Part shown: positions 54,330-57,300 of the stretch, piece by piece
Layout: each line of letters begins with the position of its first letter
How positions within the stretch are numbered: the first letter of the stretch is position 1
From: Felis catus
Lineage: Eukaryota
Assembly (NCBI RefSeq): GCF_018350175.1
Contig: NC_058373.1
Location: 74,462,001-74,526,000, forward strand
Reading direction: 5' to 3'
DNA: 64,000 nt
The notes under the pieces: model-generated
What the model saw: only the letters and a program-made list of their open reading frames with translations
Databases searched by the model: none
What the model was told of the DNA's origin: nothing
Position numbers and translations under genes: made by a program

Positions 54330-57300
54330 CTACTTGTGGGGAGCACGCTGCCAGCCTCTACCCATGCCCCAAGGTGCCTGGCCCTGTGTGGATAAGGCAG
54401 TTCCTCCTTGTATAATCAAGTAGTTGTTGTCTCCCACCTGTACCGCATGGCTGTCACTTATGATAACAGATGGCGGCCCTTTAAGAGAAATTTGCAGGGT
54501 TAGTGGAAGGGGTAAGTAGTGAGGACCTCAAAATTAGGAGGAGCAGCAGGGTGGAGGGGCAGCGGCACCTTGTGTCCATCCTGGGGAATTGCAAGTATGG
54601 GGTCTCTAGGCTGGCCTGTGGCTGGGTCAAGGCATGCCTTGGCCTTCCCCTTCCTGTTGCCCCTTCAGAACCCATTTGCAGAAATTCAAAAGGAGTGGCA
54701 ACTAATGTCTGAGACCCTGATATTTGGGTCTTTTCTTCCAGGAGCCCCTCTGGACCAGTATAGCAACAACGGAAGTTAGGGGTTCACAGAGCTGGTGCCG
54801 GGGAAAGTCAGGAAGCTCAGGGCAAATCCAGGCTTTGCTGTGTGACCTCAGTGGGATCTAGTCCCAGTGGGTGTCAGTTTCTTCATTATATGAAACGAGA
54901 AGTTTGGGGTAGTTGGCCACTAGCCCTTTCTCTCCCCTGCTACCCAAGGTACCCTGGATCTATATATGGTCTTGAGGAAGAAGCCAGTGGAAGAATTAAG
55001 CAGGAGAAAGGAAGGAGTGGGGAGTGGGTACCTGGTATTGGATTAAGCCCTGGTGCCCTGGTTGGCTGGTTGGTGCCATGTCTCTTAGCCCCCTGCGAAC
55101 AACACAGCTCTCTTAGGCTCCCTGTCCTGGGGCCTATTCCCCTGCTGCATCCCCTTCAGCCCCAAATTTTCCCTGGCGAGGGGGACAGGATTCACAGGAT
55201 TCCTAGTGCATCCTCTAGTTCTGCCAGGGTCTCACCCGATTCCCTTTGGGCCCAGGACCTGGGGTCCAAGCCAACTTGGGGCTGTGGGTATGATTTCTGA
55301 AAGGTGAGGTCTCTGGAGTTTGGGGAGATGGGGCTGTTGAGGCTGAAGGTATCCCTGCTCTCCGGGAAGGCTGAACCTTGTCTCCCTGTGTCCTGATCCT
55401 CTCAGGAAGATTTGTACATTTCTTAGGAACACAGCCGGGGGCCTCCTTCAGATTTAGTTTGTTCAACATTTCAGAGGCTATAGAATCATGGCTTCCTGTG
55501 GTTCCCCTAGGCTCATCCATTTCTGTCCCTCCTGGGCCTGGCTTGGGGGCAGACAACATCCTGTTGCTACCCCTGTGCTCAGACAGGAACTTCTTCACCT
55601 GCAAGGATAAAAGGAGCGTTCTGGGCATGGAAGTGGGAGAGCCAGTGTAAACCCAAGGAAAGAATCTCTTGGTCCATAATCCATTACCTGGGAACTCAGC
55701 GGTGAGGTGGGGAGAGTGGGGCCAAAGATTAAGGCATGCATAAAGAACAGTGGTCAGTGGGGAGTCATTGGGTGGCCAAGAGAGTCATGTTGTGCCATCC
55801 TTGCTCCGCTCTGGGGTTGGGGGTGGCATTGGACACTCACCATGGAGACTGCGGCATCCATCTCCTTGTTTACCAGAATGAGGGCTTCCTCGGTATTTGG
55901 TCGGCATTCTGGAAACAAGCAGAGTGGGGTGGCAGATGAGCCAAACCTTCCCAGGGAGAAGCCCCCTGCTGACAGATCCAGGCCTACCCTGGCTGACGGC
56001 TAAATGGCCAGTTCACCTTGGAAGGAGGGCCTGTCCTTGGGCTCAGGGCTCCAGCAGTGCTGCATTAACCTCTTCAGTCCTTCCAAACCAGGAGTCTCCG
56101 GGCTGGGCTGAGGCAGCTTGGTCAATGGGGGCCGGATCTGCCTCTCACACACTGCTTCCTGTACTGCTGATTTCTGGGCCACTACTGGAGTGGGGGTGGA
56201 GGATGTGAAGAAAAGACATTCAGGGTATGAGGGGCCACTTGCTCCACCATGGGAAGGGGAAAGGAGTGTAGTCCAAGGCAAGGTGAGGAGAAAGTCAGGC
56301 AGTCTGAGCAGGTAAGCTGGAAGAAGAGGGTTTGGAGGCTTGCAGGAGGAGGGCACCTGGAGTTAAGGATCCCAGTGTCTGCCTAGAGTCTTACTCTCAG
56401 CTTCTCTTCCAGCTAGCACTGCCCACATTAGGATCCCGAAGCTGCAGGAGACACAAAGCTGAGACCTGAGCAAACTGCTGGCAAGACTACTTTCCCATAT
56501 ACCGGCCCCTAGAAGGGTCCAGAGAGGTATAGAAATTTGGAATGTGTGTTTAGAGTGGGTACCTTACCTGTAGACATCGCTAGCCATGGAGGCTCTCCGG
56601 TTTCCATCAGCCAACAGTTCTGGGGCCAAGTAGGCTAGGGCTAACTCCTCAGATCTTGCCAGTGACGTTGAGCCTCCTTGAAATGTGAATAGGCCAAAAT
56701 CTGCCAGCTGGAAAGGGAGGGAGGAAGGAGAAGGTTGGGGATGGACAGGTAAGGCGACTTTCAGAATTCCCTCTCCCACCACAAGGTGCAGGTCCAGCCT
56801 TGTAAAGGGGGTTTTGAGGGTTAGGGGAATGGGAGGACCAGTAGGGCCCTTGGGTTGGAGGTCTGGGTACCCTCTCATGGGGCTGGGTCAAAGTCTGAGT
56901 CTCCTCAGCTAGGTCAGCCATGAGGCTTTTGATGGACTGGTGGGTGGGCCTGTGGAACTGACCGTGTTGGTCAGGGTCTCAAACACCTGGTATGGTAGGG
57001 GCCATGGCTCCTGGGTGGGCTTTGACACCTGTGTCCCAAGGGAAATGCTGAGAGTATGCAGCAGACAGAGCTGAAGCAGTTTCTGTGTCTAGTGGGTGGG
57101 GCTAGAACAGTTCTGAGACAGGACTGTGTCCAGAGGCTGGGCTGGGCTATGGGTGGGCTGACCTTGGCGTGCAGGTCTGAGTCCAGCAGGACGTTGGAGG
57201 GCTTGAGGTTCCGGTGCAGAAGCACTGGATTCTGGCTATGCAGGTAACACATCCCCAGCACCAACTCCTGCAGCAGGCGACAGAGGAACGGCCAGGGCCG

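Follow-up and report, generated by a model that had tools for sequence, protein, structure and literature searches.

Asparagine at the catalytic base of felid RIPK3 and a probable kinase-dead scaffold in the cat

The domestic cat has a single, intact RIPK3 gene, whose product carries asparagine (Asn144) in place of the catalytic aspartate of the HRD motif. The reading we favor, at a probability of roughly 0.7, is that this protein is a kinase-dead scaffold, which binds RIPK1 via its RHIM to drive NF-κB and whose catalytic activity was probably lost stepwise after the deletion of MLKL. The felid substitution is real, fixed in the felid records compared, and already known; having been published, it adds little, and the main remaining interest lies in a testable extension, the loss throughout Carnivora of the P+1-loop threonine corresponding to human T182.

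Results

The RIPK3 gene of the cat

The window analyzed here is a stretch of 64,000 nucleotides of Felis catus DNA. RIPK3 lies on its minus strand, where ten coding exons span 58030 to 54330 and all introns are of the GT-AG type (Table 1). The open frame has 490 codons and a single terminal stop; the ten exons of the model are free of frameshifts, early stops, and damaged splice sites, and its 490 residues show no difference from RefSeq XP_003987615.3. There is a single close copy in the cat genome: a search with exon 3 yields one match of 100% and four paralogue exons of 40-51%, and the catalytic aspartate is retained in RIPK-like paralogue exons as HLD, HLD, and HHD (L002, L003, and L004, respectively). 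In the PDB the protein matches human and mouse RIPK3 best (E 2e-133 to 2e-126), the named top homologues are RIPK3, and residues 5-315 align in sequence with solved RIPK3 structures; a single-sequence AlphaFold model is unusable (mean pLDDT 39). The RHIM core VQVG occupies residues 454-457, and PF12721 is matched on felid records.

Table 1. Features of RIPK3 in the window.
Feature	Position	Strand	Remark
RIPK3 coding exon 1 (ATG at 58030)	58005..58030	-	model = XP_003987615.3
RIPK3 exon 2: Gly-rich loop and VAVK (K52, 57624-57622)	57611..57751	-	
RIPK3 exon 3: αC E62, hinge, catalytic loop	57163..57472	-	
AAC, Asn144, replacing the catalytic Asp (human D142, mouse D143); felid-specific	57208..57210	-	
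RIPK3 exon 4: DFG, activation segment, APE	56568..56707	-	
TTC, Phe166, replacing the human S164 autophosphorylation switch; 12/12 felids	56687..56689	-	S164 role: PMC8143796
Leu181-Ala182 against Gly-Thr of other mammals (human G181-T182); two-residue deletion site	56639..56644	-	
RIPK3 exon 5	56395..56441	-	
RIPK3 exon 6; Ser227 kept (human MLKL-docking autophosphorylation site)	56017..56184	-	role: PMC9226014
RIPK3 exon 7	55841..55908	-	
RIPK3 exon 8: linker; D328, then Glu, at the presumed caspase-site position	55236..55598	-	
RIPK3 exon 9	55032..55092	-	
RIPK3 exon 10, coding part: RHIM core VQVG (54443-54432), stop codon	54330..54478	-	
AATAAA, likely polyadenylation signal	54164..54169	-	

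The acceptor of exon 6 is a tandem, CAG TAG at 56187-56182, of which the second AG would remove one residue; the shorter form is seen in records of other species. Nine positions (6, 194, 249, 268, 288, 327, 405, 421, and 430) set the cat protein apart from every one of the nine other felid records of 490 residues, and in the RIPK3 tree the cat has the longest felid branch (0.019). Directly downstream, on the same strand (minus), RIPK3 adjoins the exons of adenylate cyclase 4 (ADCY4, 37370-52516), with which it is fused in two database models (P0045 and P0063). Elsewhere in the window, 29063-30154 and 33749-34991 hold long open frames in one piece (345-373 codons), which by synteny are probably the two leukotriene B4 receptor genes.

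Catalytic residues

The catalytic loop, LHRNLKPSN, is encoded at 57219-57193 of the minus strand (CTG CAC CGG AAC CTC AAG CCC TCC AAC), with residue 142 at 57216-57214, R143 at 57213-57211, and N144 at 57210-57208. An earlier note on this DNA, made from the letters alone, had reported the AAC of Asn144, which re-reading of the minus strand confirms; it had given the motif as 57196..57219, of which the end is right and the start falls three bases short of the nine codons. The same note had equated the site with the HRD aspartate and described VAVK and DFG as retained. Both statements hold: Asn144 aligns with the aspartate of human RIPK3 (PDB 7MON) and with mouse D143, and K52 and the DFG at 162-164 are present. 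The protein further retains, besides K52 in β3 and D162 of DFG, E62 in αC, K146, N149, APE, and S227, so that D142N is the sole change among the catalytic residues K50, D142, and D160 (human numbering). Two hallmarks of active Ser/Thr kinases are missing, the aspartate of the catalytic-loop HRD and the threonine or serine of the P+1 loop. RIPK3 is transcribed in cat corpora lutea, as seen in a supplementary row of an RNA-seq study (PMC11959938); this is a lost catalytic motif in an intact, expressed gene.

Distribution of active-site changes

Among the matches listed, HRN is present in 12/12 felid records, from the eight genera Felis, Prionailurus, Leopardus, Lynx, Puma, Acinonyx, Panthera, and Neofelis; the comparison across Felidae that the earlier note had proposed is thus in agreement with it. 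The catalytic aspartate is found in 29/29 species-assigned records of other carnivorans (2 hyaenid, 5 canid, 4 ursid, 8 mustelid, and 10 pinniped), counting one chosen record per species without other isoforms and clusters listed to at most 15 members, and in 104/104 non-carnivoran matches among the best 120 of 142. Residues K50, E60, K144, N147, D160, and S227 are likewise kept in the non-felid carnivoran representatives compared. No further feliform (mongoose, civet, linsang) is named among the best 120 of 129 matches in a second homologue search.

One feliform-like RIPK3 record, P0016, from a single contig, shows HRG at the catalytic aspartate. In the tree it falls among feliforms at 100/99 and outside felids plus hyaenids only at 84/75, and a clade with felids is compatible with the data (p-AU 0.0825); possibly its HRG is a second independent loss, or else an error. 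The arginine of HRD is variable in RIPK3 where the aspartate is kept, yielding HWD, HED, HKD, and HQD (P0027, P0039, P0057, P0073, P0149; pangolin, moles, giant panda); among ursids, which have S164A, HQD is that of Ailuropoda. DLG takes the place of DFG in the cheetah (P0129), the black-footed ferret Mustela nigripes (P0161), and two baleen whale records (P0078, P0085), and in the latter two proline also replaces a serine of the catalytic loop.

At the D328 position (window 55517-55512), which we take to be the RIPK3 caspase site, feliforms keep the aspartate, with glutamate next to it, and 26/27 caniform records have Glu-Gly, the remaining one giving no match to the pattern; caspase cleavage of carnivoran RIPK3 may have been lost. 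Changed caspase sites are mentioned by Fay et al. (eLife 2025, PMC12119088).

The P+1 loop in Carnivora

Serine or threonine at Tyr-3, in the P+1 loop, occurs in none of the 43 carnivoran RIPK3 records (41 species-assigned and two others), and the glycine preceding it is gone too. The threonine is kept in 101/102 hits from other mammals, among them the two Manis species and Smutsia, two further hits being without the exon. The alignment has a two-residue gap at Gly-Thr before Tyr-x-x-Pro-Glu, which is common to most carnivorans and longer in mustelids; pangolins keep Gly-Thr. By alignment with human RIPK3 in the PDB, the missing threonine is T182. The sole non-carnivoran exception among the 102 hits is the bat Saccopteryx leptura (P0083), whose RIPK3 also has HQD, shares with arctoids an arginine in the Gly-rich loop, and lacks an aspartate at 328; judged by these residues, it may represent a convergent loss of the kinase.

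In Ser/Thr kinases, the P+1 threonine contacts the catalytic aspartate and lysine, and the table published with this kinome-wide study lists T182 of RIPK3 as loss-of-function when mutated, the same being true of nearly all kinases in it (PMC12141571). According to its discoverers' review (PMC6235095), T182 once phosphorylated primes S227 and brings in PELI1; Meng et al. (2022, PMC9226014) detected neither T182 phosphorylation nor PELI1 binding, and noted that the cat lacks S164 and T182. The loss of T182 across Carnivora goes unmentioned in the accessible text of Fay et al. (PMC12119088), and no description of the Gly-Thr deletion was found in a literature search, outside of which lie most subscription papers and two published alignment figures. 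As read from the alignments, this Carnivora-wide loss is an addition to the published felid change.

Absence of MLKL

The earlier note had stated that Carnivora lack MLKL, and in the cat genome, the one in which we searched for it, the gene is absent from its syntenic site, matching the published deletion in carnivores (PMC8445033). MLKL normally sits between RFWD3 and FA2H (PMC8445033). The Pfam MLKL_N model gives no match over its cut-off in the cat genome, where GLG1, RFWD3, and FA2H exons are found on contig C39 by the same kind of search. Across the 200 kb syntenic region, which is free of N, a profile built from the RIPK3 alignment reaches only E about 1.1 at best in six frames, and a Pfam scan of minus-strand frames 58 codons or more in length, covering 150/220 of them (each of the 135 in L019-L022 and 15 in L023), recovers only the RFWD3 RING and FA2H hydroxylase exons, about 37 kb apart. 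A weak MLKL_N match on contig C1 (E 0.87) contains two stops, lies off the syntenic site, and was rejected.

Constraint on the sequence

VQVG is kept in the full-length proteins of 12/12 felid and 29/29 other species-assigned carnivoran records (41/41), annotated protein records being biased toward intact genes. Among 11 felids, 2/84 near-invariant kinase columns vary, against 19/183 others (Fisher p=0.026); this constraint modestly fits a stable scaffold role. The ratio of kinase to linker variation is 0.87 in felids (p=0.70), 0.46 in mustelids, 0.52 in pinnipeds, and 1.02 in Old World monkeys; it was rejected as a test of relaxed selection, since the monkeys, a control with an active kinase, show that it does not discriminate.

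Published properties of feline and engineered kinase-dead RIPK3

The literature search advised in the earlier note brings up a prior report, so that the felid change cannot be presented as new: Fay et al. (PMC12119088) describe feline RIPK3 as having a mutated kinase catalytic residue. Their text names no residue, and we infer that D142N is meant, as the only one of the three catalytic residues to have changed. The protein that they cloned, XP_003987615.3, activates NF-κB in a RIPK1- and RHIM-dependent manner, with signaling reduced by mutation of the RHIM, and causes no cell death with human ZBP1 and MLKL. In their source data, the NF-κB reporter means are 2.64 for cat, 0.87 for cat in RIPK1 knockout, and 6.74 for human RIPK3, the cat activation in these transfected human cells being weak, at about 40% of human. 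The death readout means with human ZBP1 and MLKL are 0.90 for cat, 5.80 for human, 1.69 for mouse, 0.88 for turtle, and 1.26 for vector; the result for the cat is confounded by species mismatch, since the kinase-active mouse RIPK3 also gave a low value, as did the turtle protein.

The substitution is, as the earlier note had stated, a standard way of killing the kinase: mouse D143N is catalytically dead, has the thermal stability of the wild type, and binds RIPK1 and caspase-8, and D161N causes constitutive apoptosis (Chiou et al., bioRxiv 10.1101/2025.04.29.651198). Homozygous D143N mice are slightly under-represented at weaning (bioRxiv 10.1101/2025.04.29.651198) and viable, with a scaffold role of the protein in TNF-driven inflammation (Du et al., PMC12966316). 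The cat protein is therefore likely to behave as a stable RHIM scaffold. By analogy with these mutants, it is plausible that the Asp144 site was the one hit because a change of the D161N type would be toxic.

Discussion

In the course of events that we propose, MLKL would have been lost in the carnivoran ancestor, as published, its absence being established here for the cat genome. On the same stem, the P+1-loop Gly-Thr pair, which holds the catalytic aspartate and lysine, would have been deleted; the common loss itself is observed, and its effect on activity we infer from the T182 mutant. On the felid stem, the catalytic aspartate would then have given way to asparagine and S164 to phenylalanine, both of which stand in the felid records. 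Fold and RHIM would have remained constrained throughout, as RIPK1-dependent NF-κB signaling would need a folded, stable protein and no catalysis; caspase-8 scaffolding, to go by mouse D143N, probably constrains the fold as well.

The earlier note had proposed that RIPK3 became a pseudokinase scaffold after necroptosis was lost. What stands of this is the NF-κB activation through RHIM and RIPK1 without killing, and the absence of MLKL; what is doubtful is the aspartate change as the inactivating step, because the other carnivorans, reported to lack MLKL, keep the aspartate in 29/29 records, and the loss of the P+1 threonine is older. As this deletion is common to the carnivoran records and, in the simplest order, precedes HRN, the felid change probably came as a second hit to a kinase that was impaired before, the main argument against being that all other carnivorans keep the aspartate. 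The RIPK3 proteins of dogs, bears, mustelids, and seals may then also be pseudokinases despite their HRD. We give about even odds to the broadest form of this proposal, that RIPK3 is a hidden pseudokinase in all Carnivora, in which one stem deletion of Gly-Thr would have disabled the kinase alongside the loss of MLKL, with HRN, S164F, and the DLG of the cheetah as later hits and Saccopteryx as a convergent case; such a deletion would escape screening by VAIK, HRD, and DFG. Several points count against the scaffold reading: the retained aspartate is hard to explain if the kinase has been dead since the carnivoran stem; cheetah DLG and the felid ratio of 0.87 would also fit slow decay; the absence of death in the published assay is confounded by species mismatch, and the NF-κB activation by the cat protein is weak (PMC12119088); Meng et al. 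saw neither T182 phosphorylation nor PELI1 binding (PMC9226014); and homozygous D143N mice are slightly too few at weaning (bioRxiv 10.1101/2025.04.29.651198).

The retained aspartate also speaks for an alternative that we consider unlikely, in which HRN is the one inactivating event and the other carnivorans keep an active RIPK3 with MLKL-independent substrates, the missing threonine being tolerated or compensated. Their aspartate in 29/29 records, and K50, E60, K144, N147, D160, and S227 in the representatives, are what it would predict; the kinase varies less than the linker in mustelids and pinnipeds, and T182 phosphorylation went unreproduced in one study (PMC9226014). It has to reckon, however, with the absence of Ser or Thr at Tyr-3, and of the preceding glycine, in 43/43 carnivoran records, with the loss of function on mutation of this threonine in RIPK3 and nearly all tabulated kinases (PMC12141571), and with drift in non-felid active sites (DLG in Mustela nigripes, HQD in Ailuropoda, S164A in ursids).

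Somewhat less likely still is that RIPK3 is an early-stage relic drifting toward a pseudogene, as in cetaceans and leporids, whose RIPK3 and MLKL carry frameshifts or stops (PMC8445033), and that the NF-κB signal is a by-product of overexpression. The stepwise loss of motifs (T182, D142, S164, cheetah DLG) and a cat signal that is weak and was measured in transfected human cells (PMC12119088) would suit a relic; full-length proteins with VQVG in 41/41 species-assigned carnivoran records (of a kind biased to intact genes), the depletion of variation at conserved columns in felids, and transcription in cat tissue (PMC11959938) argue against it. That AAC reflects a fault of assembly or sequencing, or else a private allele, has a negligible probability: the codon is read from the assembly and from protein records rather than from raw reads, but an assembly error is excluded because HRN is shared by 12/12 felid records from eight genera, and the change was reported independently (PMC12119088). 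Among sequencing runs compared by 299 words sampled from this DNA, 14 rows of one organism contain every word (12 of these rows being marked as potential sources of the DNA) and 6 RNA rows contain 0.27-0.89 of them; as the sampled words may fall outside the codon, these runs are given no weight here.

A corollary concerns luteal regression. In human cells and mice, RIPK3 autophosphorylated at S164/S165 becomes a scaffold for apoptosis and in this role promotes the luteal regression that prostaglandin induces (PMC8143796); felids have phenylalanine at the S164 position and no catalytic aspartate. By analogy, carnivorans, and felids above all, could lack this route to luteal apoptosis, which could contribute to the persistent corpora lutea described in lynx; we regard this as improbable. 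It would be at most a contributing factor, since domestic cats with the same alleles do regress their corpora lutea, and it stays speculative because a search of the felid corpus luteum literature paired with RIPK3 found no paper with RIPK3 in its main text, because cats, unresponsive to prostaglandin early, lose pregnancy to it from day 33 (PMC11787223), and because mean RIPK3 counts in cat corpora lutea are lower in regressing than in maintained ones (166 against 295; PMC11959938).

The felid change makes cats carry in nature the D143N-type allele that was engineered to separate the scaffold from the kinase role of RIPK3, and RIPK3 kinase inhibitors and necroptosis readouts are unlikely to be applicable to them. 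Should the T182 deletion be inactivating, RIPK3 would also lack kinase activity in dogs, ferrets, bears, and seals, some of them disease models, although their HRD looks normal, and such cases would pass unnoticed through pseudokinase screens based on motifs.

Comparison with known systems

HER3/ERBB3 is a pseudokinase that lacks the HRD aspartate and has HRN. Cat RIPK3 resembles it in having asparagine at the catalytic base with the VAIK-type lysine and DFG kept, features from which nucleotide binding is likely; it differs in that the loss is specific to a lineage within an otherwise active orthologue. With the feline RIPK3 of Fay et al. (PMC12119088) it shares the protein itself (XP_003987615.3) and the conclusion (catalytic site lost, NF-κB kept, no cell death); this core claim is identical, and only the Carnivora-wide loss of T182 is absent from the accessible text of that report. 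The loss of the RIPK3-MLKL axis is shared with cetaceans, leporids, and some rodents and afrotherians (PMC8445033); unlike these lineages, with their frameshifts and stops, carnivorans retain a RIPK3 that is full-length and invariant in its RHIM core. Close counterparts are the engineered mouse D143N and human D142N (bioRxiv 10.1101/2025.04.29.651198; PMC12966316; PMC9226014), which carry the same substitution in a stable protein that binds RIPK1 and caspase-8, supports no necroptosis, and acts as an inflammatory scaffold. Unlike them, the cat allele is natural, is fixed in the records compared, stands in an MLKL-null background, and is accompanied by the loss of T182 and S164.
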